From positions 171,413-235,412 of the forward strand of contig JBDRYB010000001.1 in NCBI GenBank assembly GCA_039803205.1: 64,000 nucleotides of DNA, given 5' to 3'. Positions 7,779 to 62,603 of the stretch are shown one piece after another; the stretch's first letter is position 1; each line of letters starts with the position of its first letter. Made by a program: the position numbers and the translations under genes. Below the pieces are notes generated by a model. It did no database searches. It saw only the letters and a list, made by a program, of their open reading frames with translations, and was not told the DNA's origin. Source of the DNA: a candidate division WOR-3 bacterium (lineage in GTDB: Bacteria; Hydrothermota; Hydrothermia; JBDRYB01).

Positions 7779-9749
7779 ATGCTTTTGGCTTTTCTGCTAT
7801 CAACAACCCTCCACGGCATGATCGCGGACGCGGAGACGGGTAACCCTCTTGCTGGTGCCGCGGTTGTCGTCGAGGGCAAGGGTGTGGGCACATACTCTGA
7901 TGAAAGTGGCCATTTTATGCTCACGAACGCGCCCGATCCCCCAATAACTCTCCTCATAAGCATGCTTGGATACCAAACCGAGAGGATTGAGCTCTTGGAA
8001 ATTCCCTCTCACCTCTCAGTTGGTTTGAAACCAGCCGCAATAGGCTCGGAGGAGATAGAAATAATCTCCTCACCAACCCTCCACGATATGAGTCAGTCTC
8101 CTGTGCCAACGCAGAAGCTTGATGCCATACGACTTCAATCAGCAAACCAGACCTCCCTCCAGGATGCGCTAAGGCTCTTGCCCGGCATAACGGTATCAGG
8201 GGATCAGTCATCTGGGGCCGCGGATGGTTTCAGCCCTCGTCTCCAAGGGCTCCTTGCCCACCACACCTTAGTTCTCCTCGATGGCAAGCGCTTGTTCTGC
8301 CACGATGGGGCTGGCTCCAACATCTCCTCGGTTCCCCTACTACTGGTTGAGAGGATTGAAGTGATAGAAGGTGCTTCCTGTGCCATTCACGGCTCAGACG
8401 CTCTGGGAGGGATAATCAACATCATAACCAAAAAACCCTCTCCTGAGCCCATGCATGCTTTCAGGGCCAATTATGGCACATATGGGAACCTGGAGGTGGG
8501 CGCCGCTTTCGGCGGGCCCGGCCCAGCTGGTTCTGCCTACATTCTGAGCATGGGCCAAAAGGCCTACGAAGGCAGAAGAGAGTCCGATGCCTACGAGAGG
8601 CTGAGCGCCTCCTGGAAGTCCGCGTGGAAGGGCTTCAGGCTGAACGGGGATTACAGCGAGGGGACATTGGGGCGTGAGAATCCGGAGCGTTTCTGGAACA
8701 CAATAGGTGAGGCGGGGTTCACTTGGATGGCTGGGTTCTCCCACAACGAGTTAAGCGCCTACGCTAACCACTATGGGAGGGCATATGGCTCATCTGATGC
8801 GACAAACCTCGTTGCGGAGATAAAAGGGGAATCTCACCTTGGGGTCTCATACCATAACCTGATGATGGGCGCGGTCCTCAGGCAGAACCAGTTTGAGCGC
8901 ACAGGCCTTTCTTTGTCCTCTGAGTCATTCTATGGATTTTACTTTGAGGACGACGCGAGGCCGCGAGGATGGCTCAATCTCGATCTGGCCGGCAGGCTCG
9001 ACCGTTATCCAATCGGTGGTTTCCAGCTGACACCTAAGGCCGGTTTCCAACTGGAGCCGAACCGGAGCCTCGTAATAAAGGCTTATTTCGGCAGAGGATT
9101 CAGGGCCCCCAGCCTCCAGGATAGATACGAGGAAAATGTCCCCGCCGGCAGTTATTACAGACAGGGGAATCCGAACCTCGTTCCAGAAATAGCCACGAGC
9201 TACTCATCCGGAATTAAGTTCTCGCCCATCAGCTTCATGAGCTTGAGCGTTTCAGGTTTTTACAACAAAGTAAGCAACATAATGGTCCCTCTTCCTACCG
9301 GAGATTCCCTGGACGGATTGCCTGTCCTCACCCTGCAAAACATCCCCAAGGCCCATTCATGGGGAGTATCACTGAATCTGAGGCTGGAAAGGGAGCCGGC
9401 CTGGGCTGACCTCTCCTATACTTATCTGAACACCAGGGACGACAGCACGGGGATGCCCCTTGGATATGAGCCAAAACACACCCTCTCTGGCCAGCTCACC
9501 TTTGAACAGAGAGGTATTGGCGCGAGCCTCACTGGCGAGTTGGTGAAGGATAGGCTTTATGTCGGAGGGCTAAGGCTTCCGGATTATTTCCTGCTCAACC
9601 TGAACCTTTTCGCGAGGCCACTGAACGGCGTTCAGGTCAACTTTGGGGTTCAGAACCTCCTTGATGAGAAGAACCTCACCTCTGCGGATGGCAGTGCCTC
9701 CCTGTGGGCAGGAAGGGCCTTTGGCGGAGGCATGAATGTGAGGTTCTAG
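7779..9749 (+). CDS. TonB-dependent receptor with N-terminal CarboxypepD_reg-like domain
   Basis: G.IADAETGNPL.GA.V N-domain; plug HTLVLLDG, VERIEVIEG..GSDALGGIINIITK; GFRAPS, GNPNLVPE; C-terminal F. Confidence 0.9.
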   Translation: MLLAFLLSTTLHGMIADAETGNPLAGAAVVVEGKGVGTYSDESGHFMLTNAPDPPITLLISMLGYQTERIELLEIPSHLSVGLKPAAIGSEEIEIISSPTLHDMSQSPVPTQKLDAIRLQSANQTSLQDALRLLPGITVSGDQSSGAADGFSPRLQGLLAHHTLVLLDGKRLFCHDGAGSNISSVPLLLVERIEVIEGASCAIHGSDALGGIINIITKKPSPEPMHAFRANYGTYGNLEVGAAFGGPGPAGSAYILSMGQKAYEGRRESDAYERLSASWKSAWKGFRLNGDYSEGTLGRENPERFWNTIGEAGFTWMAGFSHNELSAYANHYGRAYGSSDATNLVAEIKGESHLGVSYHNLMMGAVLRQNQFERTGLSLSSESFYGFYFEDDARPRGWLNLDLAGRLDRYPIGGFQLTPKAGFQLEPNRSLVIKAYFGRGFRAPSLQDRYEENVPAGSYYRQGNPNLVPEIATSYSSGIKFSPISFMSLSVSGFYNKVSNIMVPLPTGDSLDGLPVLTLQNIPKAHSWGVSLNLRLEREPAWADLSYTYLNTRDDSTGMPLGYEPKHTLSGQLTFEQRGIGASLTGELVKDRLYVGGLRLPDYFLLNLNLFARPLNGVQVNFGVQNLLDEKNLTSADGSASLWAGRAFGGGMNVRF

Positions 9750-9781
9750 TGGCACTCAAACGGGTCGGCCGATGCGGAGAT

Positions 9782-11308
9782 CTACCTGATTATCCTTGTG
9801 GTCCTTATCCGTCCCTGATACCTGAGCATGGCGAGACAGACGCCCTTTACACTTGGATTTGGAATGAAAGTGTGGCCGCCCCGGCTCAGGAGGCCCTCAC
9901 ATAGCCTCTGAACAAGCCTCCCTGAGGCATCGTAGAGATCCAAGGAGACCTCTCCGTCCTTCGGGAGGAAAAGGTATAGCCCCTTGCCCATTGGCCTGAG
10001 AATGAGAGTCTCTTCACCAAAGAGATCCTCTCTCTGGTAAAGCGAACCGCAACCACTCGCATTGTAGGGGTCATCTATGGCGAATATCCGGTAGCCCTGA
10101 GGATCGGGATCAAAAGTCCCTGTTATTATTTCTACACAACCGTCGCCGTCTATGTCTCCGGCAAAGGGCGAGTGAACATCACGAGCAAGAGCTATCCTCC
10201 AGGCTATTGAACCGTCTTCAGCGTTAATACAATAAAGGGTCTCAGTGCTAGCTTGAGAGGCTAAGAACTCTATGTTTCCGTCTCCATCTATATCTCCCGA
10301 AACTCCGGGCAAATGCACTGCTCCAGGAAGCGGCGTAGACCACTTCTGCGTCCCGTCTGAGCCTCTGAGACAATAGATATTGCAGTCAAAACTACCTATA
10401 ATCACCTCCATAGCACCGTCCTGGTCACAATCAACGAGGACAGGAGAACTATACACATCATTTCCCGTAGTGAAACTCCACTTTTGCGCGCCATCCGATC
10501 CGCTCAGGCAATAGAGTTTATCATCCCTGCTACCCACCAACACTTCTATTAATCCATCTCCATCACAGTCACCGAGAGTGGGTGAGCTATACACATTGCC
10601 CCCTGTAGTAAAAGACCATTTTAGTGTCCCGTTTGAGCCCCGAATGCAGTAGATCTTGTAGTCAATACTACCCACCACAACCTCTTTTGCGCCGTCCCCA
10701 TCAATATCCGCAATTGCTGGAGAGCTAGTTAAAACTATAGTGGGTTCCCCCGAGAAGCTCCATTTTTGGGTTCCGTTTGAGGCGCGAAGGCAATAAATGT
10801 AGCCATTGTTAACAGCCGCTATAACCTCTTTTTGTCCATCTCCGTCAACATCTACAATTGCGGGAGCACTTTCTATTCCGCTAGGAGCCGTAAATTTCCA
10901 TCTCTGAGTTCCATCTGACCCGGCTAAGCAGTAGAGGTTGTGATCATTTGAACCTATAACTACTTCGAGATTTCCATCGTTATCAACATCGCCCACCGCT
11001 GATGATGCATCAAAAATGCCTCCTGCCGTGAAGGCCCACTTCGGGGTTCCATCTGAGCCCCCGATACAATAGACCTTCCCGTCATGACTGCCCATGAGCA
11101 CCTCAGGGTTTCCATCGTTATCAACATCAGCTATAGCTGAGAACTGCCACTCAACCGCGTTTCCCGTTGCGAAGCGCCACTTTATTACCGGGGTTGTTAT
11201 GGCGCCTTTCATGAGCTGGACAGAGACATGCGTGGGATCTCCGCCCCACATGGGCCAGGTTCCATAGACCTGGCTTAGGATCACCATGATATATCCTGCT
11301 GCAGTCAT
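9782..11308 (-). CDS. Secreted FG-GAP/PQQ-like repeat beta-propeller with T9SS-like CTD
   Basis: Repeats SSPAIADIDGDG..EVVVGS.D..YC..GS.G..KW; CTD LYDASGRLV. Start reassigned to ATG 11308 (SD GGAGGTG). Confidence 0.8.
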   Translation of the reverse strand: MTAAGYIMVILSQVYGTWPMWGGDPTHVSVQLMKGAITTPVIKWRFATGNAVEWQFSAIADVDNDGNPEVLMGSHDGKVYCIGGSDGTPKWAFTAGGIFDASSAVGDVDNDGNLEVVIGSNDHNLYCLAGSDGTQRWKFTAPSGIESAPAIVDVDGDGQKEVIAAVNNGYIYCLRASNGTQKWSFSGEPTIVLTSSPAIADIDGDGAKEVVVGSIDYKIYCIRGSNGTLKWSFTTGGNVYSSPTLGDCDGDGLIEVLVGSRDDKLYCLSGSDGAQKWSFTTGNDVYSSPVLVDCDQDGAMEVIIGSFDCNIYCLRGSDGTQKWSTPLPGAVHLPGVSGDIDGDGNIEFLASQASTETLYCINAEDGSIAWRIALARDVHSPFAGDIDGDGCVEIITGTFDPDPQGYRIFAIDDPYNASGCGSLYQREDLFGEETLILRPMGKGLYLFLPKDGEVSLDLYDASGRLVQRLCEGLLSRGGHTFIPNPSVKGVCLAMLRYQGRIRTTRIIR

Positions 11309-11349
11309 CTTAACACCTCCGTGTGGTTTTTTGTTCCCAAGGAAAAATA

Positions 11350-11398
11350 AGGCCAGCCGGAGCAGAAACGGGAGGTGCAAGGATTCTCCGGCTGGCCT
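11350..11398 (-). other. Intergenic stem-loop with conserved 23-nt loop (terminator/attenuator-like)
   Basis: 13-bp perfect stem, loop AATCCTTGCACCTCCCGTTTCTG, followed by TATTTTT on the mRNA strand. Confidence 0.65.
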
Positions 11399-11402
11399 GG
11401 TC

Positions 11403-12923
11403 TCATTTTACAACCGCCTTCCCTTTTTGGTTTCCTGCTTTCCAAAAGTAGACCCCTGGCTCAAGGGTCAGCTTGTTCTCTCCCTTTTGGAGTCGCCTCG
11501 CGTAAACAACCCTTCCATCGGAGCTGTATATGTTTATTATTGTCTCCTCGTTCAAGAAAAACAGGGCGCCGCCGGGCGTAGGAGAATAAACTATCTCTGG
11601 CCTTGAAGGGTTGGAGACCTCCTCCGGGTTTAACGGAAGGCATACATCAGTTACGCTTAAGGTAGGAGTTGTTGAGGCTATACTGGGAGATGATATGCTT
11701 GGGGAACAATCCGTGCCAACATTCAGAGAGGATATGTTGGGGACTATATCCATAACGGTGGGCTCGCACTCCTGAACGCATCCAGGGTAGCTTCCATCAG
11801 AATTTACCATAAGAACAAGGAGATCATACCACCCTGCACCGAAGCTATCAGTGTATCCAGCAATCACATAGTTTCCGTCCGGGGTTTGAACTACAGAATG
11901 CGCTTCATCAAAGCCTAGGCCGCCGAACTTCCTGGCCCACTCTAAAGAACCATCGGGGGTTATCCTTAAAAGAAGGAAACTCCGGCCGCCGATGCCGGAG
12001 CTTTCTGTGTATCCAGCAACCGCATAGGTTCCGTCAGCGTTTTGGATTATGGACCAAGCTCCATCATAATGAGTGCCACCGTATGTCTTGGCCCAGGCCA
12101 GAGAACCATCAGAATTGAGCTTGAGGATGAGGAGATCGTATTCGCCCGCCCCAAAACTCAGAGTAGCACCAACGACCATAAACCCCTCATCCACCGTCTG
12201 AATTATGGAATATCCCTCGTCAGAAGCCGGCCCTCCTAACATCTTGCCCCACTCAAGAGAGCCATCGGGGTTGAGCTTGAGCACGAGAACATCATAATCG
12301 CCGCCAGCATAGCCATTTCCTCGGCCTGCTACTGCGTAACCGCCGTCCGCAGTCTGAATTATGGAGAAAGCTTCATCGGTGCGCGTTATCTCCCCGTATG
12401 TCTTGGCCCAGGCCAGAGAACCATCAGAGCTCAGCTTTACAACGAGGAAATCTATCATAAAGGAGTAGCTATCCGTCCATCCGGCGAGCGCATAGCCTCC
12501 GTCTTGGGTTTGGACTATAGAATAAGCATACTCGCTTAATTGGTCTCCCAATGTCTTGGCCCAGATGAGCGAACCGCTAGAGTTAACTTTGAGAATGAGG
12601 ACATCGTTATTTCCCGCGCCGAAACTCTCCGTAGAACCAACTACCACATATCCTCCGTCTGAGACCTGTTTCACGCAGAACCCCCCTTCATAGTTGTTGC
12701 CCCCAAATGTTCTGGCCCAGACCGGAGAACCGTCGGTGTTCACCTTAAATAGCAAGAGATCGTAATCACCCGCGCCAAAGCTCTTCGTAGCCCCTACTAT
12801 AGCAAACCCCCCATCTGTTGTCTGCGCAACAGACCAAGATTCGTCCCAAGAGATACCGCCATATGTCTTAGCCCAAAGGCTTTGTCCCATCAAGGTGGTC
12901 GCTATGATATATGCGCTTATCAT
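11403..12923 (-). CDS. Secreted 52-aa-repeat beta-propeller, paralogue 1
   Basis: Seven repeats of WAKTYGG..D.A.SI.QT.DGGY.V.G.T.SFGAG..D.L.LK; Cys/Ser/Thr/Pro linker; CTD IYSSDGRVVY...LEPGVYFW...KGKAVVK. Confidence 0.85.
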   Translation of the reverse strand: MISAYIIATTLMGQSLWAKTYGGISWDESWSVAQTTDGGFAIVGATKSFGAGDYDLLLFKVNTDGSPVWARTFGGNNYEGGFCVKQVSDGGYVVVGSTESFGAGNNDVLILKVNSSGSLIWAKTLGDQLSEYAYSIVQTQDGGYALAGWTDSYSFMIDFLVVKLSSDGSLAWAKTYGEITRTDEAFSIIQTADGGYAVAGRGNGYAGGDYDVLVLKLNPDGSLEWGKMLGGPASDEGYSIIQTVDEGFMVVGATLSFGAGEYDLLILKLNSDGSLAWAKTYGGTHYDGAWSIIQNADGTYAVAGYTESSGIGGRSFLLLRITPDGSLEWARKFGGLGFDEAHSVVQTPDGNYVIAGYTDSFGAGWYDLLVLMVNSDGSYPGCVQECEPTVMDIVPNISSLNVGTDCSPSISSPSIASTTPTLSVTDVCLPLNPEEVSNPSRPEIVYSPTPGGALFFLNEETIINIYSSDGRVVYARRLQKGENKLTLEPGVYFWKAGNQKGKAVVK

Positions 12924-12970
12924 GAGTTAATCGCTCCTTTTACGACAAAAGATGTGGCTTTCTGAGGAGA

Positions 12971-13021
12971 TGGGCTGGCTCCGGGTATTCCGGGAGGTGC
13001 GAGGGTTCCAGAGCCAGCCCA
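12971..13021 (-). other. Intergenic stem-loop with conserved 23-nt loop
   Basis: 14-bp stem (one U-G pair on the minus strand), loop AACCCTCGCACCTCCCGGAATAC. Confidence 0.65.
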
Positions 13022-13027
13022 CAAACC

Positions 13028-14530
13028 TCATCTTACGATGGCTTTCCCTTTGTATGTTGTAACCTGCCACAGGTATACCCCTTGTTCAAGCCCTATACGG
13101 GTTTCGCCCTTCCTGAGTTCCCCTGAGTATACAAGTCTTCCATCTGGTTTATACATCCTTATACTCACCTCCTCTGAGGCGACGAAAACCAATCCACCCG
13201 GGACTGCGTGGCAGGTTATTCCTGGTTTCTGCACCGTGATGCGGTCTTTTAGGTTTAGAGGCGGGCACATATCTGTTATCGTTAAACTAGGAGCAGTTAT
13301 AGATAGGTTTGGAACTGAGATATCTGGAGAGCAAGGCGCCGCCCCTGATACCGAGAATACGCTTATGGAAGGCGTTGAGACGATCGGATTACAAGGGATA
13401 GCGCATCCCGGGTAGTTCCCTGAGGTGTCCAAACTAAAGGCAAAAATGTCAAAGACCCCATCGCCATGTCGGCCTGCTACCGCAAACCCTCCATCATTAT
13501 TTTGGATCACAGAAGATGCGTATTCCCAAATCCCTCCCCCTACGGTTCTACCCCAGGCGACCGAAGCATCTGAGTTCAGCTTGATGAGAAGGGCATCATC
13601 ATTGCCAGCCCCAAAACTCCCTGTGGAGCCGGCCAAAACATAGCCTCCGTCAGCGGTCTGAATCAGGGAATAAGCGTGGTCAAAGGAGGACCCTCCGTAT
13701 GCCTTTGCCCAACTCAGAGAACCATCTGGGTTCAGTTTTAGGAGAAGAGCCTTGGGATAAGTGCCGAAGTTGTAGGATTCCCCTGCTACCATGAGTCCGC
13801 CGTCTGCTGTTTGAGCTATAGAGTATGCGAAATCATTGTAGTCTCCTGTGCTAAATGCCCTCCCCCAGGCGGGCGAGCCGTCCGAGTTCAGCTTCAGAAC
13901 AAAAATATCAAAACCAGTTAAAGAAAAAACCCCGTGGCCAGTCACAGCATATCCGCCGTCCGATGTCTGGATTATGGAGTAAGCAGTGTCAACATAATTA
14001 GTGGCTCCGAAAGTCCTCGCCCAGGCAATTGAGCCGTCAGGGTTCAACCTGAGGATAAGATCACTGCCACTTATATCACCGCCGAAGCTAATTGTGTTGC
14101 CAGCAAGAGCGTAGCCACCGTCTGATGTCTGAGTTAAAGAATGGGCCTCGTCAGAGCTTGTTCCTCCGTATGTCCTGGCCCAGGAGAGGGAACCATCGGG
14201 TTCCAATTTGATGACGAGGAAATCAGAAGCTCCCGCGCCAAAGCTCCTTGTATATCCCCCAACCAGATACCCTTGGTCTGAGGTTTGGATTACCGAGAAA
14301 GCCCTATCATCATCCGGTCCCCCGTATGTCCTGGCCCAGGAGAGGGAACCATCGGGCCCCAGCTTGATGACGAGGAAATCACAATTACCTGCCCCAAAGC
14401 TACTAGTATATCCTGCGATGACATAGCCGCCTTCCGCAGTCGGAGCTATAGAGTAGGCCAAATCCTGACTAGCTCCTCCATAAGTCTTGGCAAAGAGGCT
14501 CTGAAGTATCGTTAGGATTAACCATGTCAT
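13028..14530 (-). CDS. Secreted 52-aa-repeat beta-propeller, paralogue 2
   Basis: Same repeat, GNYPGC linker and CTD as its neighbours; SD GGAGG. Confidence 0.85.
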   Translation of the reverse strand: MTWLILTILQSLFAKTYGGASQDLAYSIAPTAEGGYVIAGYTSSFGAGNCDFLVIKLGPDGSLSWARTYGGPDDDRAFSVIQTSDQGYLVGGYTRSFGAGASDFLVIKLEPDGSLSWARTYGGTSSDEAHSLTQTSDGGYALAGNTISFGGDISGSDLILRLNPDGSIAWARTFGATNYVDTAYSIIQTSDGGYAVTGHGVFSLTGFDIFVLKLNSDGSPAWGRAFSTGDYNDFAYSIAQTADGGLMVAGESYNFGTYPKALLLKLNPDGSLSWAKAYGGSSFDHAYSLIQTADGGYVLAGSTGSFGAGNDDALLIKLNSDASVAWGRTVGGGIWEYASSVIQNNDGGFAVAGRHGDGVFDIFAFSLDTSGNYPGCAIPCNPIVSTPSISVFSVSGAAPCSPDISVPNLSITAPSLTITDMCPPLNLKDRITVQKPGITCHAVPGGLVFVASEEVSIRMYKPDGRLVYSGELRKGETRIGLEQGVYLWQVTTYKGKAIVR

Positions 14531-14564
14531 AATGAAACCTCCGTGGCTTTGTTTGCAGGTATCA

Positions 14565-16034
14565 TTACTTCACGATCCCTTTTCCTCTGTATGAACCTGC
14601 CCTCCATATGTAGACTCCCCTTCTGAGATCTATTCTGGTAGAACCCTTACGAATCCTTCCAAAATAAACAAGTCTGCCATCATAGGCATAGAGATCGATC
14701 TCGGATTCTATTACGGATCTGAAAACCAGGCCACCCGGAACTGAGAAGCAGGTAATCGGAGAGAGGGGGGGTTCTGTCTCCCTATCATAAAGAGAAGGGC
14801 AAAGGTCATTGGATACCAGAGAAAGGCTAATAGGACTCATAACCGGATTCCCCACCGAGATAGCCCATGCAGCTGTGGGAACCTGTGGAGAGGAGATATT
14901 TAATGTGGGTTCCATGATGATGGGGTTGCAATCCTGGACACAGCCCTGATAGTCACCGTTAACTCCTATTCTCATAACGATAGCCCGGCTAGATGTGGCA
15001 GAGATGGGGTAACCGCAAATGATGAATCCGGCGGCATTCTGACGGATGGAATATGCCCTTTCTTCGCCTCCGGCTCCAAAAGTCTTAGCCCATTCCAAGC
15101 TCCCGTCCGAAGCCAGTTTCGCGATAATGAAATCCGTGATACCACTACCGAAGCTCTTAGTCCAGCCCGCTGAGGCACACCCCCCATTATCTACTTGCGT
15201 TACTGACCATCCATACTCGTAGTCCGAACCCCCAAGGGTTTTCGCCCAGATCAAGCTCCCGTCAGAAGAGAGCTTGAGGATGGCCATATCGTAACTGCCA
15301 GCACCGTAGGCATTGGTGAATCCTGTTACATAGAGACTGAGATCAAATCCGATATCAACCCCATGGAACTCTAAGCCGTCAAACACTCTAGCCCATTGGG
15401 GGTTGCCATCCCACTGGAGTTTTAGCACTATCCCACCCTGATCCTTGCGCCCCACCACGATATACCCTCCATCCGAGGTCTTAGTAAGGCTGAAACCGTT
15501 TTCGATACCAGCATCACCGTACTGCTTAGCCCACTGAAGAGAACCTGTAGAGTTCATCTTGATAACGGTGATCTGGGGATCCAAAGCCGCGTCCCAGGTG
15601 TATCCCGCTATTACGAGTCCGTTATCCGGGCTCTCAACCAAACCGAAAGCGTAGTCATAACTATTTGTCCCCCCCACTATCCTTGCCCAGCGGAGCGCCC
15701 CGTCTGATCCGAGCTTTAGGACTATGAGATCATATCCTCCGCCAAAACTGTTGGTATACCCGGCTACACCGAAGTCCCCATCGGAACACTCTATTATTGC
15801 CTCTCCTCTGTCATCTCCTGAATCCCCAAAGACATTAGCCCACTCTACACTCCCGTCTTGGGATAGCTTGAATACCAGGAGGTCCCTAGAACCTCCCCAT
15901 GTGGTCGTGTAATTGCCCACAGCGGCATATCCCCCATCAGCGGTAGGGGTTATCCAATTGACTTCTATATGGGGAGGTCCGTATTCCTTAGCCCAAACCC
16001 CAATTAGGATATCCAGGAAAAACCATCCAAGCAT
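14565..16034 (-). CDS. Secreted 52-aa-repeat beta-propeller, paralogue 3 (diverged)
   Basis: Degenerate repeats, GDYQGCVQDC linker, CTD LYAYDGRLVY...GVYIW. Confidence 0.8.
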   Translation of the reverse strand: MLGWFFLDILIGVWAKEYGPPHIEVNWITPTADGGYAAVGNYTTTWGGSRDLLVFKLSQDGSVEWANVFGDSGDDRGEAIIECSDGDFGVAGYTNSFGGGYDLIVLKLGSDGALRWARIVGGTNSYDYAFGLVESPDNGLVIAGYTWDAALDPQITVIKMNSTGSLQWAKQYGDAGIENGFSLTKTSDGGYIVVGRKDQGGIVLKLQWDGNPQWARVFDGLEFHGVDIGFDLSLYVTGFTNAYGAGSYDMAILKLSSDGSLIWAKTLGGSDYEYGWSVTQVDNGGCASAGWTKSFGSGITDFIIAKLASDGSLEWAKTFGAGGEERAYSIRQNAAGFIICGYPISATSSRAIVMRIGVNGDYQGCVQDCNPIIMEPTLNISSPQVPTAAWAISVGNPVMSPISLSLVSNDLCPSLYDRETEPPLSPITCFSVPGGLVFRSVIESEIDLYAYDGRLVYFGRIRKGSTRIDLRRGVYIWRAGSYRGKGIVK

Positions 16035-16049
16035 CTCGTTCCTCCTTCC

Positions 16050-17552
16050 TCACCTTACAACTGCTTTACCTTTGTATTGTCCGGATTCCCAAAGATAGAC
16101 TCCCTGGTCCAGGTTTATACGGTTTTCGCCCCTTAGGAGATCACCGCAATAAACGAGCCTCCCATCAGAAGAATATACTCTGAGGCCAGTAGCCATCTGG
16201 CTTATAAAAACGAGACCACCGCTTACAGAAGCGGCTACCACATGGGGCGAGAAATTAAAGGTGTCCTCGCTTGAACCCTCGTAAACAGGGACCGAGGCGC
16301 AGAAATCTGCCTGTGTGGGAGTAACTGGATCGAAGGTAGCGTTATAGTTGTTGGAGGTTATGGATACCGTGGTTGTGGTTATTCCAGGAACATCCTCAAC
16401 GGCTACCACATCGTTCGGGATAAGGGAGGCATCCGACACGCAGTTGGGATATTCCCCGTTTGCCGCTATCTTCATAACAAACATATCCTCATCAGTTGAT
16501 ATACTACCCTTGCCAGCAAAAACCAAGGTCCCGTCCGATGCTTGGATGACATCCCGGAAGTGCCACCATCCAGATGGACTCGCTGGAAACCTCTTTTGCC
16601 ACCTCAATGTCCCGTCCGGCCCTATTCTGAGAGCCACGCCTCCGTTTCCACCCGCCACCACATAGTCACCGCCAGAAAGCTGTATTCCAGAATAACCCCA
16701 CTCATACCCTGAGGTGCCAAAGGATTTCGCCCACTCCAAGGCCCCATCGGAGGCTACCTTCAGAACGAGGATGTCGTTTTGGCCAGCCCCAAAGCTATAT
16801 GTGGTTCCAACGACCAAGAAGCCCCCATCAGAGGTTCCGGTTATGGAATGCCCGGCATCATAATTCGTGCCGCCATAGGTTTTTGCCCAAATTACAGTTC
16901 CATCCGTGCCAACCTTAATCACTATCACATCTCCTTTGGGGTCCCCAAAGCTCTTAGTGTAGCCCGTTATCGCGTAGCCACTGTTATCAACCGCCTTAGC
17001 AACAGAATAGCCATAGTCTTCGCCGCTTCCTCCATAGGCCTTTGTCCAATTTATGCCCCCGCTACTACTGAGTTTCGCGAGCGCGATGTCCCAGTTGTTT
17101 CCGCCGAAGGTACCTGCAACTAGGAAATCGCTAGCCGAACTCTGGATCAGATCCTCGGCATATATGTTGCGATTCGCGAGAGAGTAGGTCTTTATCCACT
17201 GCAAGGATCCGGATGAGCTCACCTTGGCCAAAAGAAAATTCCAATAGAAGAATGGGGATTCTTGCCCGCAAACCAACAAGCTCCCGTCTGAGAGCTGGAG
17301 CACGGATACGGCCCGATGGTTATTCCCGCTCAGCCACCTACACCATTCTCTCGTCCCGTCCTGGCTAAGCTTCAGAAGCATGAGATTCTCAAACCCATTT
17401 GATTCTTCGTATCCTGCTACCGCATATCCGCCATCTGTTGTCTGGATCAATGAAAAGGCCGCTTCGTTCATATACGGGTCCCATCCTTCCCAGCCATATC
17501 CTTTGGACCAAAGAGTCTGGCCCAGCGCAACAAAGATGATTATCCCTGACAT
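16050..17552 (-). CDS. Secreted 52-aa-repeat beta-propeller, paralogue 4 (diverged)
   Basis: Degenerate repeats, GEYPNC linker, CTD VYSSDGRLVY...GVYLW. Confidence 0.8.
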   Translation of the reverse strand: MSGIIIFVALGQTLWSKGYGWEGWDPYMNEAAFSLIQTTDGGYAVAGYEESNGFENLMLLKLSQDGTREWCRWLSGNNHRAVSVLQLSDGSLLVCGQESPFFYWNFLLAKVSSSGSLQWIKTYSLANRNIYAEDLIQSSASDFLVAGTFGGNNWDIALAKLSSSGGINWTKAYGGSGEDYGYSVAKAVDNSGYAITGYTKSFGDPKGDVIVIKVGTDGTVIWAKTYGGTNYDAGHSITGTSDGGFLVVGTTYSFGAGQNDILVLKVASDGALEWAKSFGTSGYEWGYSGIQLSGGDYVVAGGNGGVALRIGPDGTLRWQKRFPASPSGWWHFRDVIQASDGTLVFAGKGSISTDEDMFVMKIAANGEYPNCVSDASLIPNDVVAVEDVPGITTTTVSITSNNYNATFDPVTPTQADFCASVPVYEGSSEDTFNFSPHVVAASVSGGLVFISQMATGLRVYSSDGRLVYCGDLLRGENRINLDQGVYLWESGQYKGKAVVR

Positions 17553-17593
17553 AGTTCACGCTCCTTTCGTTTTTGGTTTCGCATAGCGCCTAT

Positions 17594-19341: not shown

Positions 19342-19677
19342 CTAGGGTTTATCATCCGGTTCCGGCCTCTCCTGGGTGAACTGGGGCATGAAACCGATCC
19401 TCTTGCCCTCCTCTTCTCCTGGTATCCTTATCTCGCCAAAACGGGCCTCGTATTTCCTTATGTTGTCCTCTATGGTCCGTAGGAGGAGTTTGGCGTGCTG
19501 GGGAGTCATGATGACCCTCGTCTCAACCTTTACCTTCTGCACGCCGGGCACGACACGGCCGAAGTCAAAAACGAACTCCGATGGGCTGTGGGTTATCAGG
19601 ACGAAATTTGAGTATGTCCCATCCCAAGCGTTTTCCGGAAGCTCAATCTGGAGATGCGGAGGGGGCAAATCCTTCAT
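19342..19677 (-). CDS. DUF3467 family protein
   Basis: GTYSN..LITHSPSEFVFDF...RVIMTPQHAK..L.DNIRKYE..FGEI. Confidence 0.85.
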   Translation of the reverse strand: MKDLPPPHLQIELPENAWDGTYSNFVLITHSPSEFVFDFGRVVPGVQKVKVETRVIMTPQHAKLLLRTIEDNIRKYEARFGEIRIPGEEEGKRIGFMPQFTQERPEPDDKP

Positions 19678-21701
19678 TTTCTCACCACCTTTGTTGAGAG
19701 CAATCCTCTGCCGCCAAGTTTTAACTCCACGATGTAGAGGCCAGCTGGCGCTCTTGAAAGATCAACCGAAACAGAATTGAGTCCGGGCTTTGTTATGGCT
19801 GATTCGCGGCACACGAGCCTTCCGTCAACTGAGTATGCTTTGAGATCCGCGGGAATGCCGCCGCAGGAGACAAATTCAATCCGGAAGATGTTCCTGGTTG
19901 GGGTTGGCCCCACGGATATGATCCTCGTGGCGATGCGATCCGAAGCGCCCTCGTCTATCCCGATGTGGACGATATGCTCGTCTATGATCCAGTTCTCGGG
20001 GTCAAACTGAAGCGTGGTAGGCTTGCCGGGGAGGGTAATTGAGAAGCCCTGGACATCAAGGCTATCCCAAAGGATGACCGTCGTATCAAGGGTGCCGTCC
20101 CTGAACCTCATGGGGACCGGCATCTTGAATGTCGGAACCCCGTAATCGTGGGACTGGGTCTGTTTTATGAGGACGCCGACCTGCCACATCCCTCCTCCTA
20201 TTGAATCCGCTTCCCAACCCACATCGTATTTAGGGTGCCCTGGCCTGTATAGCCACTCGTCAAAAAACCAGCCCAGGCTGAGGCCAGTGAAAGCCTGGTA
20301 TTCCTGGGTGAAGTCCCTCGTGAGCGCGTAGCTCTCAGCGTGGTTGTTCTTATAGTATCTCAAAGCGGCCCAGAAAGCGAGGGTGTCCCCTCCGAGCAGG
20401 TATTCCGTTATCTTCTTGAGGGAGTGAAGGACGCAACCTGCCTTGTCGTATGTCTCAACCGAGAACAGCTCCTCAAGGCTCTGGCCGGGGTTGTATATGG
20501 GAATAGGGGGCCATGTGTAGTATTGGAGGTAGATCCTCATTCTAACCGAATCAATCCAGTATTGATACATGTTAGGCCCCCAATACCAACCCCACCAGAC
20601 AGCCTCAGAGAAGGTGGCAAAGCCCTCGTTCAGCCATATGTCTGGCCATGTGCCGCATGTCACATAGTCCCCCCACCAGTGGTGGGAGAGCTCGTGGGCC
20701 TGGACCCAAATCGTTCTCAGCGAGTCCCCGTATATGCCGAACCCGGTGAATGTATTTGTCTGGTTCTCCATAGCTCCTCCGAGCTCGTCTATCTGGACCT
20801 GGGAGTATTTCTGATCCATGAAGGGATAAACCCCGTAGAGGGCCGAATAGCCCTCCATTGCCCTTGGAAGGAGCTTGTAGTCCAGCTCCGCGGCCGCTGA
20901 ATCAGCGTGGGATACATAGTGAACGATGGGAAGGGTATCGCCGGCCCAGATGAATGTATCCCGAATGGTAGCGTAATCGTAAGCGGCAAAGACTATGAGA
21001 TATGTGGCTATCTGGCGGTCATTGACCCATCTGTATGTCCACCATGTGAAGTTCTGGACTGAGTCCACGAGAACCCCGTTTGCCACAACACGCCAGCCCG
21101 CTGGAACAGTCGCAGTTATCTCAGACCTCGCCTTCTCGGAAGGAACATCAACGCAAGGAAACCAGTGCCTAGCTCCCCAGGGCTCATCATCAACATAGCA
21201 TATCGTATCCCCTATTGTGAGGCCGCCGGAGGAGATTATGCCCTCAGGATGAGTCGGGGGGCCGTGGTAAAAGACCGATGCCGTGTCTATCCTGCCAGGG
21301 GATGGGTTCGGTATAACGATGTTCAGGATCCTCCCGGTGTCGGAGCCTGAGAGGGACCAAATAGCCGGAGCGCCATCCAGAAGAACCGAATCCACAACAA
21401 GTCCGAGGTTTGGCGTCGCGCTCATTGAATCAACGAAGTTTAGCCTAAGGAAAACGGAATCCTCGGTTATCTGGAACTCCACATCACACCTGGCGTTCAT
21501 TATGCTATCGCCAACCGTGTCTATGGTCAAGTTTATGCTGTATTTGAGGATATCCCAGGGCAAGTCTGGCGGCAGGGTGTCAAGCTCCATTATGCCGAAG
21601 CGCTCCCTAAGGCGCAGTTTCTCATCCATGGCCCGGATCTCGTCTAGGCTTGGGATCCCATCAGGCCATCCGAGCGCAAAGAACAAAATAGCGTTCATCA
21701 T
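19674..21701 (-). CDS. M1 family zinc aminopeptidase with T9SS-type CTD
   Basis: GGAMEN, HELSH-x18-E (WLNEGFAT), YDKAG; CTD YSVDGRLV...PAGLYIV. ATG 21701 lies 6 nt after TATAAT. Confidence 0.92.
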   Translation of the reverse strand: MMNAILFFALGWPDGIPSLDEIRAMDEKLRLRERFGIMELDTLPPDLPWDILKYSINLTIDTVGDSIMNARCDVEFQITEDSVFLRLNFVDSMSATPNLGLVVDSVLLDGAPAIWSLSGSDTGRILNIVIPNPSPGRIDTASVFYHGPPTHPEGIISSGGLTIGDTICYVDDEPWGARHWFPCVDVPSEKARSEITATVPAGWRVVANGVLVDSVQNFTWWTYRWVNDRQIATYLIVFAAYDYATIRDTFIWAGDTLPIVHYVSHADSAAAELDYKLLPRAMEGYSALYGVYPFMDQKYSQVQIDELGGAMENQTNTFTGFGIYGDSLRTIWVQAHELSHHWWGDYVTCGTWPDIWLNEGFATFSEAVWWGWYWGPNMYQYWIDSVRMRIYLQYYTWPPIPIYNPGQSLEELFSVETYDKAGCVLHSLKKITEYLLGGDTLAFWAALRYYKNNHAESYALTRDFTQEYQAFTGLSLGWFFDEWLYRPGHPKYDVGWEADSIGGGMWQVGVLIKQTQSHDYGVPTFKMPVPMRFRDGTLDTTVILWDSLDVQGFSITLPGKPTTLQFDPENWIIDEHIVHIGIDEGASDRIATRIISVGPTPTRNIFRIEFVSCGGIPADLKAYSVDGRLVCRESAITKPGLNSVSVDLSRAPAGLYIVELKLGGRGLLSTKVVRK

Positions 21702-23925: not shown

Positions 23926-23927
23926 GC

Positions 23928-44921: not shown

Positions 44922-45500
44922 CTATCGGTTCATCAAGAGGTAAACGGATATTCCAACTGATACTCCGGTTGCCAGCATGTAGAAGATGCCTGACCAGCCT
45001 CCCCACTTTGAGAGGAGGGTTCTCGGCACATATATGATGTCTCCGGATTCAACCCCAGCCTCAATCGCGGACTGGCCTTTCTTCATCGCCGCGTTCAGGT
45101 TGACCCTGGCCGCTGAGCCCTTCTTTATTAGGGAGACCCTTCCGAGGTCTCCTGATGGCGTTGGCCCCCCTGCCAGGGCCACTATCTCAAGGATGGTCTC
45201 GGAGCCCGTGATGTAGTATTCCCTCGGGCCGAAAACCTCCCCTGTGACATAGACCCTGAAGAGGGGCTCAAGGGTCAACTGCGGGTTGTTGTAGTATGTC
45301 TCGTAAGCCTTCTCCAGCTCAGCCCTGAGAGCCTCGGCCTCCTTTCCCCCGGCCGTGACCTTGCCCAGAATGGGTAGGTAGCAACTGCCGTCCTCCAGCA
45401 CCCGGTATTGGCCGGATATCATGGTGTCCGGCCAGAGGTAGACCCTTATCATGTCACCAGGGGCAAGAACAATGGCCGTAAGCCAAGGCAATAGAATCAT
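44922..45500 (-). CDS. Polysaccharide export protein (Poly_export plus SLBB, Wza-like)
   Basis: LAPGD.I, DG..YLP.LG.V..GG, VYVTGEV..P, ALAGGP, SGDIIYVP; no lipobox. Confidence 0.85.
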   Translation of the reverse strand: MILLPWLTAIVLAPGDMIRVYLWPDTMISGQYRVLEDGSCYLPILGKVTAGGKEAEALRAELEKAYETYYNNPQLTLEPLFRVYVTGEVFGPREYYITGSETILEIVALAGGPTPSGDLGRVSLIKKGSAARVNLNAAMKKGQSAIEAGVESGDIIYVPRTLLSKWGGWSGIFYMLATGVSVGISVYLLMNR

Positions 45501-49473: not shown

Positions 49474-51015
49474 CTATCTGATCGCCAGCTTGCCGGATTG
49501 GTTACGAGTTACGGGTTCCGGGTTACGGGTTGTCCAGATGTAGACCCCTGGCTCAAGGGGGAGCCGGTTCTCGCCCTCCTGCAATTCGCCGGAATAGACT
49601 AGCCTTCCGTCTGCCTTGTATATCTTTATCCCAATATCATAAGGGGAAATGAAGAGCGCGGCGCCCGGAACCGGGGAGCAGGTTATCCTGGAGCCCGGAA
49701 GGATGTCTCTCTCTCTGACATAAACCGTTGGGCAAACCTCGGTTATGGCCGGATCTGGGGTGGTTATAGTTGGGTCTGGGGATGATGTCTGAGGGGAGCA
49801 GTCCGCGCCAACTGAGGGTTCGGTTATGGTTGGCGAAACATCGTAGACGGTTGGGGAGCATTCCTGGACACAGCCGGGATAGTTCCCGTCAGAACCCAGC
49901 TTGAGGACGAGGAAATCATAATCGCCGGCGCCGAAACTCCTTGCCTTTCCCGCGACAGCGTAGCCTCCATCCGCGGTCTGAGCTATGGAGGAGGCCATGT
50001 CCCAGTCTGTTCCGCCAAATGTCCTCGCCCAGGCAAGTGAACCATCCGGGTTAAGCTTGAGGACTAGGAAATCACTATTGCCAGCGCCGAAACTCTGTGT
50101 GTATCCCGCGACAGCGTAGCCTCCATCAGAGGTCTGGTTTATGGAGGAGGCTATGTCCCCGTTTGTTCCGCCAAATGTCCTCGCCCAGGCAAGTGAACCA
50201 TCCGGGTTCAGCTTGAGAACGAAGCAATCAAAATAGCCAGCGCCGAAACTCTGTGTGTATCCCGCGACAGCGTAGCCTCCATCAAAGGTTTGGGTTATGG
50301 AGGAGGCATCATCCGTGCTTGTTCCCCCAAATGTCCTTGCCCAGGCAAGAGAGCCGTCGGAGTTCAGCTTGAGGACGAGGAGATCCCGATCGCCAGCACC
50401 GAAACTATATGTGTGTCCCGCGACAGCGTACCCTCCATCAGAGGTCTGGGTTATGGAATAGGCCCTATCCCAGCTGGTTCCGCCAAATGTCCTTGCCCAG
50501 GCGAGAGAGCCATCCGGGTTCAGCTTGAGGACAAGGAAATCAGCATTGCCAGCGCCGAAACTATATGTGATTCCCGCGACAGCGTAGCCTCCATCCGCGG
50601 TCTGAGCTATGGAGGAGGCTATGTCGTAGTCTGTTCCCCCAAATGTCCTTGCCCAAGCGAGAGAGCCGTTGGAGTTCAGCTTGAGGACGAGGAGATCCCG
50701 ATCGCCAGCGCCGAAACTATATGTGTGTCCCGCGACAGCGTAGCCCCCATCAGAGGTCTGGGTCATGGAGTAGGCCGTGTCCCAGTCTGTTCCGCCAAAT
50801 GTCCTTGCCCAGACAGGTGAGCCATCCGGGTCCAGCTTGAGAACGAGGAAATCATAACCGCCAGCGCCGAAACTCTGTGTGCGTCCCGCGACAGCGTAGC
50901 CCCCATCCGCGGTCTGGACTATGGAGCGGGCCTCGTCCCAGTTCGTTCCGCCAAAGGCTTTGGCGAAGAGCCACTGACCAACCAAGATGTTTGTGGTTAT
51001 TATAGCGTATATCAT
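49474..51015 (-). CDS. Secreted 52-aa-repeat beta-propeller, paralogue 6 (copy B)
   Basis: Seven 156-bp repeats; last blade, linker and CTD almost identical to copy C. Confidence 0.88.
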   Translation of the reverse strand: MIYAIITTNILVGQWLFAKAFGGTNWDEARSIVQTADGGYAVAGRTQSFGAGGYDFLVLKLDPDGSPVWARTFGGTDWDTAYSMTQTSDGGYAVAGHTYSFGAGDRDLLVLKLNSNGSLAWARTFGGTDYDIASSIAQTADGGYAVAGITYSFGAGNADFLVLKLNPDGSLAWARTFGGTSWDRAYSITQTSDGGYAVAGHTYSFGAGDRDLLVLKLNSDGSLAWARTFGGTSTDDASSITQTFDGGYAVAGYTQSFGAGYFDCFVLKLNPDGSLAWARTFGGTNGDIASSINQTSDGGYAVAGYTQSFGAGNSDFLVLKLNPDGSLAWARTFGGTDWDMASSIAQTADGGYAVAGKARSFGAGDYDFLVLKLGSDGNYPGCVQECSPTVYDVSPTITEPSVGADCSPQTSSPDPTITTPDPAITEVCPTVYVRERDILPGSRITCSPVPGAALFISPYDIGIKIYKADGRLVYSGELQEGENRLPLEPGVYIWTTRNPEPVTRNQSGKLAIR

Positions 51016-51066
51016 AAATAAACCTCTGTTAGGCTCAAATTATAAACCTTTGTCAAGGGGCAAAAC

Positions 51067-52608
51067 CTACCGGATCGCCAGCTTGCCGGATTGGTTGCGG
51101 GTTACGGGTTGCGGGTTACGGGTTGTCCAGATGTAGACCCCTGGCTCAAGGGGGAGCCGGTTCTCGCCCTCGTGCAATTCGCCGGAATAAGCTAGCCTTC
51201 CATCGGCCTTGTATATCTTTATCCCAATCTCATAAGGGGAGATGAAGAGCGCGGCGCCCGGAACCGGGGAGCAGGTTATCCTGGAGCCCGGAAGGATGTC
51301 TCTCTCTCTGACATAAACCGTTGGGCAAACCTCGGTTATGGCCGGATCTGGGGTGGTTATAGTTGGGTCTGGGGATGATGTCTGAGGGGAGCAGTCCGCG
51401 CCAACTGAGGGTTCGGTTATGGTTGGCGAAACATCGTAGACGGTTGGGGAGCATTCCTGGACACAGCCGGGATAGTTCCCGTCAGAACCCAGCTTGAGGA
51501 CGAGGAAATCATAATCGCCGGCGCCGAAACTCCTTGCCTTTCCCGCGACAGCGTAGCCCCCATCCGCGGTCTGAGCTATGGAGGAGGCCATGTCCCAGTC
51601 TGTTCCGCCAAATGTCCTCGCCCAGGCAAGTGAACCATCCGGGTTCAGCTTGAGGACTAGGAAATCACCATTGCCAGCGCCGAAACTCTCTGTGTATCCC
51701 GCGACAGCGTAGCCCCCATCAGAGGTCTGGGTTATGGAGGAGGCATGGTCCCAGCTCGTTCCCCCAAATGTCCTTGCCCAGGCAAGAGAGCCATCCGGGT
51801 TAAGCTTGAGAACGAGGAAATCATAACCGCCAGTGCCGAAACTCTGTGTGTATCCCGCGACAGCGTAGCCCCCATCAGAGGTCTGAGCTATGGAGGAGGC
51901 TATGTCGTAGTCTGTTCCCCCAAATGTCCTTGCCCAGGCGAGAGAGCCATCCGGGTTAAGCTTGAGAACGAGGAGATCATAACCGCCAGCGCCGAAACTA
52001 TATGTGTATCCCGCGACAGCGTAGCCTCCATCAGAGGTCTGGGTTATGGAATAGGCCCTATCCCAGCTGGTTCCGCCAAATGTCCTTGCCCAGTGGATAG
52101 AGCCATCCGGGTTCAGCTTGAGGACGAGGAAATCATCATCGCCAGCGCCGAAACTATATGTGTGTCCCGCGACAGCGTACCCTCCATCAGAGGTCTGGGT
52201 TATGGAATAGGCCCTATCCCAGCTGGTTCCGCCAAATGTCCTTGCCCAGTGGATAGAGCCATCCGGGTTCAGCTTGAGGACGAGGAGATCAGCATTGCCA
52301 GCGCCGAAACTATATGTGTATCCCGCGACAGCGTAGCCTCCATCAGAGGTCTGGGTCATGGAGTAGGCTCCGTCCTCGCTTGTTCCGCCAAATGTCCTTG
52401 CCCAGACAGGTGAGCCATCCGGGTTCAGCTTGAGAACGAGGAAATCATAATCGCCAGCGCCGAAACTATATGTGTATCCCGCGACAGCGTAGCCTCCATC
52501 AGAGGTCTGGATTATGGAGCGGGCCTCGTCCCAGTTCGTTCCGCCAAAGGCTTTGGCGAAGAGCCACTGACCAACCAAGATGTTTGTGGTTATGAAAGCA
52601 TATATCAT
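51067..52608 (-). CDS. Secreted 52-aa-repeat beta-propeller, paralogue 7 (copy C)
   Basis: Tandem near-duplicate of copy B; start at ATG 52608 by homology and SD. Confidence 0.88.
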   Translation of the reverse strand: MIYAFITTNILVGQWLFAKAFGGTNWDEARSIIQTSDGGYAVAGYTYSFGAGDYDFLVLKLNPDGSPVWARTFGGTSEDGAYSMTQTSDGGYAVAGYTYSFGAGNADLLVLKLNPDGSIHWARTFGGTSWDRAYSITQTSDGGYAVAGHTYSFGAGDDDFLVLKLNPDGSIHWARTFGGTSWDRAYSITQTSDGGYAVAGYTYSFGAGGYDLLVLKLNPDGSLAWARTFGGTDYDIASSIAQTSDGGYAVAGYTQSFGTGGYDFLVLKLNPDGSLAWARTFGGTSWDHASSITQTSDGGYAVAGYTESFGAGNGDFLVLKLNPDGSLAWARTFGGTDWDMASSIAQTADGGYAVAGKARSFGAGDYDFLVLKLGSDGNYPGCVQECSPTVYDVSPTITEPSVGADCSPQTSSPDPTITTPDPAITEVCPTVYVRERDILPGSRITCSPVPGAALFISPYEIGIKIYKADGRLAYSGELHEGENRLPLEPGVYIWTTRNPQPVTRNQSGKLAIR

Positions 52609-54498: not shown

Positions 54499-54506
54499 GG
54501 CTATCC

Positions 54507-56637: not shown

Positions 56638-56716
56638 AGGTGATATTATAAAGTGATCTTGCCTTTGGGTTCTCTATTCTTGCGCCGGAATGCGTTCTGG
56701 CCTTATCCTATTAATA

Positions 56717-59489: not shown

Positions 59490-59549
59490 TTGAAAAGGGC
59501 CAGGGGCATCCCTTAAGATTTCGGCTCAAACCCATAGGAGGTTTTTGCG

Positions 59550-59912
59550 ATGAAGAAGCTATTGTTTGGCTTTGTGCTCGTAGGTTTCCTGGCGGGGTGC
59601 GCGACCATCGTCATTGACGCGCCGCCCGGCGCCGACAACACGGTATCCTTGACCTCTCAGCCATCCGGAGGCTCCTCGTATCACTTCGTTGCCAAGAAGA
59701 AGGTATGGTATATACTTTGGGGGCTCATCCCAATCACAGACAACCACACCGCTGATCTGGTTGCCGCAAGCGCGCAGGGCAAACCCGTGAGGAATCTCAG
59801 AGCCACGACCACCTACACCTTCGTTGACTGGCTTCTATCAGTGGTTCTAAACATCATACCCACCACAATCCAAGTGAAATCGGTTATAGTTGAGGGCGAT
59901 GTGGTGAAGTAA
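59550..59912 (+). CDS. Bor/Iss-like lipoprotein
   Basis: MKK..hydrophobic..LAGC lipobox; WYILWGLIP; TFVD. Confidence 0.65.
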   Translation: MKKLLFGFVLVGFLAGCATIVIDAPPGADNTVSLTSQPSGGSSYHFVAKKKVWYILWGLIPITDNHTADLVAASAQGKPVRNLRATTTYTFVDWLLSVVLNIIPTTIQVKSVIVEGDVVK

Positions 59913-59989
59913 TCCCTGAGCTATTCGAAACACATTTGTTTTCGGCAAAGGCCAGGCGCGATGGCCTGGTTCTGGATTATAATTTCCAC

Positions 59990-60709: not shown

Positions 60710-60733
60710 TCTTGAAAAATTGGAGGTTTTGAG

Positions 60734-62167: not shown

Positions 62168-62186
62168 GATAACCCCGGGATCATAA

Positions 62187-62603
62187 CTATTGAAAGCTCA
62201 GCACCCTCAGGAGCCAGAGAGCGGCAACGGCCCTTTTCTCAAAGACGCCAACTGGGCCATCCAGATGGCCTATTGTCCTGTATGAAGCGTCGGTTATGTC
62301 CCCGTCGTCCTCTATGTGAAGGATAGTTCTGTAGCTCTCATCCGTGACATCCCCATCTTCCTCAACATGGCCTATTGTCCTGTATGAATCGTCGGTTATG
62401 TCCCCGTCGTCCTCAATGTGGCCTATTGTCCTGTATGAATCGTCGGTTATGTCCCCGTCTTCTTCAATATGCGCTATTGTCCTGTAGCTTTCGTCAGTTA
62501 TGCGTCCATCGGCCTCCAAGTGGGCTATCGTCCTGTAGCTGTCATCGCGGACGGTTATATCCCCTGAGAAAACCATCGCGCTCAACAGAAAAATCTCTAT
62601 CAT
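62187..62603 (-). CDS. Small 17-aa repeat protein (five-fold beta-flower-like)
   Basis: About six repeats of DGDITDDSYRTIGHIE(E/D) (51 bp). Confidence 0.7.
   Translation of the reverse strand: MIEIFLLSAMVFSGDITVRDDSYRTIAHLEADGRITDESYRTIAHIEEDGDITDDSYRTIGHIEDDGDITDDSYRTIGHVEEDGDVTDESYRTILHIEDDGDITDASYRTIGHLDGPVGVFEKRAVAALWLLRVLSFQ

Follow-up and report, generated by a model that had tools for sequence, protein, structure and literature searches.

Short, uncharged N-termini as probable minimal export signals in a candidate division WOR-3 bacterium

Sec signal peptides are usually about 18–30 residues long. A 64,000-nucleotide stretch of the genome of an uncultured hot-spring bacterium of candidate division WOR-3 (GTDB lineage Bacteria; Hydrothermota; Hydrothermia; JBDRYB01), comprising positions 171,413 to 235,412 of contig JBDRYB010000001.1 and here called the window, encodes a series of proteins whose families belong outside the cytoplasm, but whose N-termini offer only a leader of 8–14 residues without lysine or arginine. 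The question raised by this locus is whether such starts are real and, if they are, whether so short a sequence can direct export. The first-pass annotation of the window had read them as a lineage-specific minimal export signal, possibly served by adapted Sec and signal peptidase I (SPase I) machinery. Its observation of short, non-basic starts is confirmed here and extends genome-wide, to most of the proteins that have to be exported; of its interpretation, the minimal export signal is supported, the lineage specificity holds only in part, and the adapted machinery finds no support in the components examined. The short N-termini are, to judge from sequence analysis, probably minimal signal peptides of the Sec/SPase I type, with cleavage often falling before a glutamine.

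Short starts in the window and across the genome

All nine of the short N-termini originally quoted were located at the starts assigned to them (7779, 23928 and 45656 on the forward strand; 14530, 52608, 45500, 17552, 21701 and 62603 on the reverse). The in-frame stop codons reported at 7758 (TAG) and 23916 (TAA) are both present, and the other seven starts also have an in-frame stop upstream, the distance over all nine ranging from 1 to 24 codons. Since TAG precedes 7779, TAA precedes 23928, and TGA precedes both 45656 and 17552, recoding of one stop codon cannot explain the pattern and was ruled out; nor was a frameshifted upstream start of the MKK type found in any frame for the nine examples. 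Strong ribosome-binding sites are seen at 45656 (AAGGAGG, 6 nt 5′ of the ATG) and at 14530 and 52608 (GGAGG). A Pfam scan placed the quoted proteins in families that belong outside the cytoplasm, the first mature domain beginning at residue 10–12 in the TonB-dependent receptor and at residue 9 in the Wza-like protein; PF18962 scored 27.4 and 22.2 bits in two scanned window proteins, at or below its 27-bit cut-off. At least seven additional open reading frames (ORFs) in the window have the same kind of short start. As a separate observation, a TATAAT-like hexamer stands a few bases 5′ of the ATG at 7779 (+) and at 21701 (−), where there is no Shine-Dalgarno (SD) sequence, and the mRNAs at these two sites may be leaderless or have a very short leader.

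The genome holding the window (G000; 2.32 Mb in 50 contigs, 95.9% complete) was surveyed with a home-made gene caller, which combines codon log-odds with an SD term and yielded 1964 ORFs of at least 90 amino acids (aa). SD matches of at least 6 nt were found at 420 of 1960 first start codons, compared with 54 of 1964 random internal sites, and the organism therefore uses SD sequences. A hidden Markov model (HMM) of the C-terminal sorting domain, built from ten C-terminal tails of the window and then iterated, detected this tail on 232 proteins, or about 12% of the ORFs, and the 227 of these with a closed 5′ end formed the census set. Membership of the short class required a hydrophobic stretch that begins no later than residue 3 and is over by residue 14, lysine and arginine being absent. 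Such a start, consisting of methionine and a Leu/Ile-rich stretch of 7–10 residues, is present on 125 of the 227 sorting-domain proteins, but on only 196 of 1724 other proteins (Fisher p = 1e-47); the remaining sorting-domain proteins comprise 34 that are uncharged but with a longer or later stretch, 43 that are basic, and 25 without such a stretch. The same classifier applied at internal methionines gave a chance rate of 4.5% for all proteins and 1.6% for sorting-domain proteins. Across the entire proteome the short class comprises 321 of 1951 closed ORFs, although the hits outside the sorting-domain set are partly cytosolic false positives, for example Rossmann-fold starts. The class includes Skp (family confirmed), several TonB receptors, all three Omp85 genes, BamA (MLIAIFAQ) among them, and proteins that by eye only resemble SurA, TolC and LptD.

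The starts of the 125 short leaders are supported by their surroundings. In 88 of them no in-frame ATG, GTG or TTG follows the upstream stop before the start that was chosen, and in 47 the upstream stop is at most five codons away; the start codon is ATG in 120, and SD matches of at least 6 nt precede 79. The leaders share a simple layout, in which the initial methionine is followed by one or two variable residues (positions 2–3 are mixed), then by six to nine residues rich in leucine, isoleucine and phenylalanine (positions 4–10 are 62–90% hydrophobic, and Leu/Ile-rich), and then by small residues, Ser, Gly or Ala, positions 11–14 being occupied by Ser, Gly, Ala, Gln or Pro. Charged residues make up 0–4% at positions 2–10. 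Measured against a classical Sec/SPase I signal, the basic n-region is, by this classification, missing from 125 of the 227 sorting-domain proteins, and the usual length of about 18–30 residues is not reached, mature domains beginning at residue 9–18; the h-region, for which some seven or more hydrophobic residues are expected, is present, the best seven-residue Kyte-Doolittle window averaging 2.90. Neither a twin-arginine (Tat) motif nor a lipobox cysteine was found in the short leaders, which contain no arginine whatsoever. In the DUF5122 family, 12–17 residues precede the conserved motif of the mature part, [FW]A[KR]xYGG, in 29 of 30 paralogues.

The glutamine noted after several leaders in the window proved to be a real landmark: it is found at residues 8–16 in 62 of the 125 short leaders, compared with 138 of 868 proteins that lack a hydrophobic start, and the residue before it is Ser, Gly or Ala in 45 of the 62.

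Lipoproteins provide an internal contrast. The two in the window (59550, forward strand; and the reverse-strand ORF ending at 657) have basic signals that begin MKK or MRR, as had been stated, and the same holds for the genome, in which 75 of 81 lipobox matches have lysine or arginine in the n-region, while at most three of the six uncharged matches are plausible. The basic lipoprotein signals are themselves rather short, and 53 of the 75 have the cysteine at residue 14–18. Both sets came from one and the same caller; the division into uncharged and basic starts therefore argues against an artefact, and it points to two kinds of signal, one for SPase I cargo and one for lipoproteins.

Conservation of the leaders and their reach in the phylum

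Homologues were examined for two of the window genes. For the DUF5122 gene at 13028–14530, 120 homologues were listed, their source given as 'candidate division WOR-3 bacterium' in the public records, and 74 of them have the mature motif within 70 residues. At most 16 residues precede the motif in 44 of the 74 (seven of them from G000), and 42 of these 44 lack lysine and arginine; four of the 74 have 19–22 uncharged residues before it, and 26 have at least 26, with lysine or arginine among the first eight residues in 23 of the 26. The public record of the query gene is itself a 352-aa piece (P0002; 100% identity over 70% of the query) without an initial methionine, and that call therefore seems to be partial. 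In all 18 close homologues of the TonB receptor (47–100% identity, two from G000) the domain is preceded by no more than 12 residues, none of them lysine or arginine, and a typical leader is MLLYVLLSA, whereas 29 of 35 distant homologues, with 15–76 preceding residues, do have one or the other; these homologues came from a protein search, and a search of genome contigs with the TonB receptor found no related locus. Alignment of homologues had been named at the outset as the place where canonical signals might come to light; the homologues retain the short leaders, and the alignments therefore reveal no hidden canonical signals. Between G000 and G032, a genome of the same genus, the short uncharged leader is kept in place in 14 of 16 orthologue pairs, and over nine such pairs the identity of the leader is 0.60, as against 0.77 for the next 40 residues. 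These comparisons support the conclusion that the short starts are real; orthologues keep both the length and the character of the leaders, and conserved mature domains follow immediately.

The reach of the trait was assessed in 20 other genomes of the phylum, sampled mostly at about 73–100 kb each and at 191–500 kb from three. The whole-proteome share of short starts proved too noisy in the 100-kb samples (2–20%, with cytosolic false positives) and was replaced by counts on sorting-domain proteins and on BamA; for the former, lysine and arginine were counted in the proteins that have a hydrophobic start. No lysine or arginine was found in 159 of 201 such proteins in G000 (median end of the stretch at residue 13, with the stretch over by residue 14 in 136 of the 201), in 14 of 34 in other genomes of the class (residue 15), in 5 of 19 in families outside the class that are negative for the signal recognition particle (SRP) (residue 19), and in 11 of 34 in SRP-positive families (residue 17.5). 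Single genomes vary widely: the congener G032 has six of eight sorting-domain proteins uncharged; among SRP-positive genomes, G052 has three of five short, and G024 has 6 short and 16 basic of 26; and in the SRP-negative G078 all five are basic. For Skp, a canonical signal is the rule in most families, SRP-positive and SRP-negative alike, f2 and f3 of the class among them.

BamA gives a more uniform picture within the class. In small fragments from 40 other class genomes, every one of the 40 BamA genes is directly preceded by an in-frame stop, and the leaders are about 7–17 residues long; by the chosen start, 32 leaders lack lysine and arginine and eight have a single lysine at residue 2–4, three of the starts in family f8 being TTG without SD and hence uncertain. 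Outside the class three BamA genes were available, of which that of f18 is canonical, that of f31 uncharged and about 19 residues long, and that of f28 long and basic; for SRP-positive families this rests on two genomes. The trait is thus a phylum-wide tendency, strong in the class for BamA and peaking in the genus. Its description as lineage-specific is right to the extent that it peaks there (159/201 in G000 and 6/8 in the congener), but about a third of the sorting-domain proteins in other families of the phylum, SRP-positive ones included (11/34), share it.

Export machinery and the weighing of explanations

The Sec translocon and signal peptidase I are encoded in G000, where a profile search found SecA, SecY and LepB at 373.8, 369.4 and 144.3 bits, and LspA and TatC are present as well. 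The single LepB has 244 aa, one membrane span and ordinary serine and lysine catalytic motifs. SecY was compared with its Escherichia coli counterpart at eleven positions which we take to be the pore-ring and prlA sites: ten are the same (F67, I82, I86, I187, I191, I278, S282, F286, L407 and I408), the sole difference being valine in place of S68. No prlA change is present among these sites, and a prlA-like SecY was rejected on this ground. With SecY as in E. coli at 10 of 11 sites and LepB motifs ordinary, the proposal of adapted Sec/SPase I machinery finds no support in the components examined. YidC (PF02096) was not found in the G000 assembly, but 190 of 201 phylum genomes, both congeners included, have it at a score over the cut-off; its absence from G000 is therefore taken as a probable assembly gap, and loss of YidC was rejected, which cautions against drawing conclusions from a gene that a single genome seems to lack.

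What is truly unusual in the machinery is that SRP is lacking throughout the class, a lack which does not track the short leaders. G000 yielded no Ffh M-domain and no SRP RNA at E ≤ 1, and a match to the SRP54 GTPase (16.9 bits) was rejected as an ABC ATPase. The Ffh M-domain is present in 104 of 201 sampled phylum genomes, but was found in none of the 65 genomes of the class (families f1–f13) and in none of the 19 of families f19, f23 and f25–f28. No full-length SRP54-type GTPase (Ffh or FtsY) was found in 64 class genomes, the best partial match scoring 30.3 bits, a negative that is limited by weak partial matches in 30 other class genomes which were not inspected. SRP RNA was found in none of the 64 class genomes, and in four of five Ffh-positive relatives. 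As controls, SecY was found in 64 and SecA in 62 of the same 64 genomes, and several of the SRP-less class genomes are 99–100% complete, in 3–4 contigs. Given that 11 of 34 sorting-domain proteins are uncharged in SRP-positive families and that SRP-negative families outside the class are mostly basic, SRP loss and short leaders differ in their distribution; counts of sorting-domain proteins and of Skp across families accordingly did not support a connection between the two.

From the sequences, starts, conservation, enrichment, first-domain positions and machinery inventory observed here, we infer that the proteins are exported, where they are cleaved and what topology the short leaders adopt. 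In the mechanism proposed, SecA would pass the chain to SecYEG, and the leader, forming the shorter arm of a hairpin, would go into the lateral gate. An arm of 9–12 residues would be too short both to hold the N-terminus at the cytoplasmic face and to present the cleavage site to LepB on the outer face; the N-terminus of the leader would therefore have to sink into the membrane, which would explain why shortness and missing charge occur together. The single LepB would cut after Ser, Gly or Ala, exposing a glutamine that may cyclise, and lipoproteins would use a separate, basic signal of 13–22 residues. A bolder version envisages a distinct engagement of the translocon, in which the whole uncharged N-terminus of 8–12 residues would be buried in the lateral gate or the bilayer, for SPase I cargo only, having evolved in a class that also does without SRP, which is otherwise universal, and a further recognition step would separate the lipoproteins. 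This version is conceivable, though we think it unlikely.

Several observations weigh against minimal Sec/SPase I signals. The residue at position −3 before the glutamine is leucine in 34 of 62 leaders, and not the usual small residue. Hydrophobicity is no greater in the leaders (2.90) than in the genome's basic signals (2.77; p = 0.30), and the hydrophobic compensation for missing charge known from E. coli mutants is thus not seen. The gene caller and the classifier are both home-made, and the short class takes in the false positives mentioned above. Zero or negative charge in the n-region markedly lowers the rate of export in model systems, and a minimal length of h-region is needed (both from PMC5875014, consulted in extract). 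A glutaminyl cyclase of the plant type (PF05096) was not found in the 96%-complete genome, M28-type cyclases not having been searched for; since glutamine can also cyclise spontaneously, according to the available part of PMC5837995, the missing plant-type enzyme is not decisive.

Three other explanations have to be set beside minimal Sec/SPase I signals. The leaders might be real but read by a lineage-specific factor or an altered translocon, which replaced SRP or followed its loss. The class-wide lack of the Ffh M-domain, of a full-length SRP54-type GTPase and of SRP RNA would be in keeping with this, as would the finding of SRP RNA in 4/5 Ffh-positive relatives and the short BamA leaders in 40/40 other class genomes, set against two basic leaders and one uncharged leader of about 19 residues outside the class. 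Uncharged leaders are found in SRP-positive families too, however (11/34, with 3/5 short in G052 and 6/26 in G024), while SRP-negative families outside the class mostly have lysine or arginine (14/19); SecY agrees with that of E. coli at ten of the eleven pore-ring and prl sites compared; and no candidate recognition factor was identified. This explanation is distinctly improbable. We rate lower still the possibility that the hydrophobic N-termini remain uncleaved, either as a small retained tag that faces membrane or lipid or in connection with some other export route. The leucine at −3, atypical for SPase I, and the 63 of 125 leaders without a glutamine at residues 8–16 would suit such a tag, but outer-membrane barrels such as BamA and the TonB receptors have to come free of the inner membrane, and 7–10 hydrophobic residues are too few to cross a membrane as a helix. 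Furthermore, the leaders have no twin-arginine motif, and, in the manner of signals that are removed, they change more quickly in evolution than the mature part.

It might finally be supposed that the short starts are artefacts of wrong start assignment, recoded stops, poly-A frameshifts in the n-region or misassembly. Some upstream in-frame start codon does exist in 37 of 125 cases, and a few of the 'basic' calls look like over-extended starts. On the other hand, stop codons of all three kinds lie just upstream and no MKK-type start is found in other frames; the short starts have strong SD sites; the same short N-termini recur in dozens of homologues whose assemblies and gene calls are independent; and lipoproteins called by the same method keep their basic signals. 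This supposition is scarcely credible, and already close to refuted.

Features of the window and comparison with known systems

The features with short leaders, and two that serve as contrast, are collected in Table 1. Propeller paralogues of the DUF5122 ('delta-60') family, all of which bear a sorting tail, form a tandem array on the reverse strand (11403–17552, 38294–39817 and 49474–52608). Elsewhere in the window, a 604-aa ORF at 27485–29299 (+) has Lys/Glu-rich tandem repeats near its N-terminus, in three near-identical copies, and a C-terminal half that is very basic and of low complexity.

Table 1. Proteins of the window with short leaders, and contrasting cases, with coordinates in the window
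Feature	Leader or signal	Coordinates	Strand	Evidence
TonB-dependent receptor	MLLAFLLST (9 aa, coded by 7779–7805)	7779..9749	+	Stop 7758; CarboxypepD_reg from residue 10–12
GH18 protein with C-terminal sorting domain	MEILLSLLA	23928..25895	+	Stop 23916; PF00704; sorting-domain HMM match
894-aa beta-propeller/CARDB protein, Por_Secre_tail	MLLEILIAS then Q	45656..48340	+	TGA six codons upstream; AAGGAGG; PF18962
Wza-like polysaccharide export protein	MILLPWLT	44922..45500	−	Poly_export from residue 9; stop 24 codons upstream, no start codon between
DUF5122 (delta-60) propeller, sorting domain	MTWLILTIL then QSL-FAKTYGG	13028..14530	−	GGAGG before ATG
DUF5122 paralogue	MSGIIIFVALG then Q	16050..17552	−	TGA one codon upstream; AAAGGAG before ATG
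DUF5122 paralogue	MISAYIIATTLMG then Q	11403..12923	−	Upstream stop one codon away; SD match 6
DUF5122 paralogue	MLGWFFLDILIGV	14565..16034	−	Upstream stop five codons away; SD match 7
DUF5122 paralogue	MIYAFITTNILVG then Q	51067..52608	−	Start confirmed; GGAGG; Pfam
DUF5122 paralogue	MIYAIITTNILVG then Q	49474..51015	−	ORF list
DUF5122 paralogue	MMIYAFITTNILVA then Q	38294..39817	−	ORF list; paralogue motif
FG-GAP/PQQ propeller, sorting domain	MTAAGYIMVILS then Q	9782..11308	−	ATG with SD match 7; longer TTG start without good SD
M1 peptidase with Por_Secre_tail (weak match)	MMNAILFFALG	19674..21701	−	Start confirmed; Pfam
5-fold beta-flower protein	MIEIFLLSA	62187..62603	−	Start confirmed; Pfam
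TonB-receptor-like barrel	MFLIACAIAGA	660..2207	−	PF00593 at 22.9 bits, weak, under cut-off
TPR/YfiO-like protein	MLWEIFCLGILS then QQ	2525..4366	+	Pfam
Contrast: lipoprotein	Basic signal MKKLLFGFVLVGFLAGC	59550..59912	+	Lipobox scan
Contrast: FG-GAP sorting-domain protein	Near-canonical signal MKHLSAVIALAVSVSWG	62714..64000	+	Pfam

No description of such short leaders, or of a free-living lineage without SRP, was found in open-access papers and bioRxiv preprints. If the leaders do work as export signals, then the accepted lower limits, a basic n-region and some 18 residues, fail in nature, and a large part of the envelope and secreted proteins of WOR-3 and of comparable uncultured lineages would probably escape the standard predictors; both the prediction of secreted proteins and the view taken of cargo recognition by the export channel would change. 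The coexistence of uncharged SPase I cargo with basic lipoproteins would offer a natural system for asking what purpose the n-region serves, and in a class without Ffh, FtsY and SRP RNA, but with SecA, SecY and YidC, the targeting of membrane proteins without SRP, a long-standing question, becomes testable.

Charge mutants of E. coli established that a Sec signal is workable at zero net charge in the n-region, and prlA variants of SecY accept defective signals. Here, by comparison, the uncharged form is the natural majority form, and it is accompanied by no prlA change at the sites compared and no extra hydrophobicity. Canonical Sec/SPase I signals (PMC5875014, in extract) resemble the present leaders in having a hydrophobic core followed by a small residue, in standing directly before the mature domain and evolving faster than it does, and in the encoded SecA, SecY and LepB; the leaders described here differ in lacking a basic n-region, in their length of about 8–14 residues, and in having mostly leucine at −3. 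Life without a working SRP, YidC being present in relatives (190/201), is shared with Streptococcus mutans, in which SRP is dispensable (PMC8546722, in extract); S. mutans still encodes SRP, however, whereas Ffh, FtsY and SRP RNA were not found in 64 genomes of the free-living class. In the mature N-terminus there is a parallel with the Q-rule, which, in the part of PMC5837995 available, holds in Bacteroidetes and not across the whole Fibrobacteres–Chlorobi–Bacteroidetes (FCB) group. Shared with it are the enrichment of glutamine after the leader (62/125), the preceding Ser, Gly or Ala, and the many cargo proteins with a C-terminal domain like that of type IX secretion; the difference is that here, with the plant-type cyclase not found, the glutamine occurs in WOR-3 and on much shorter leaders.

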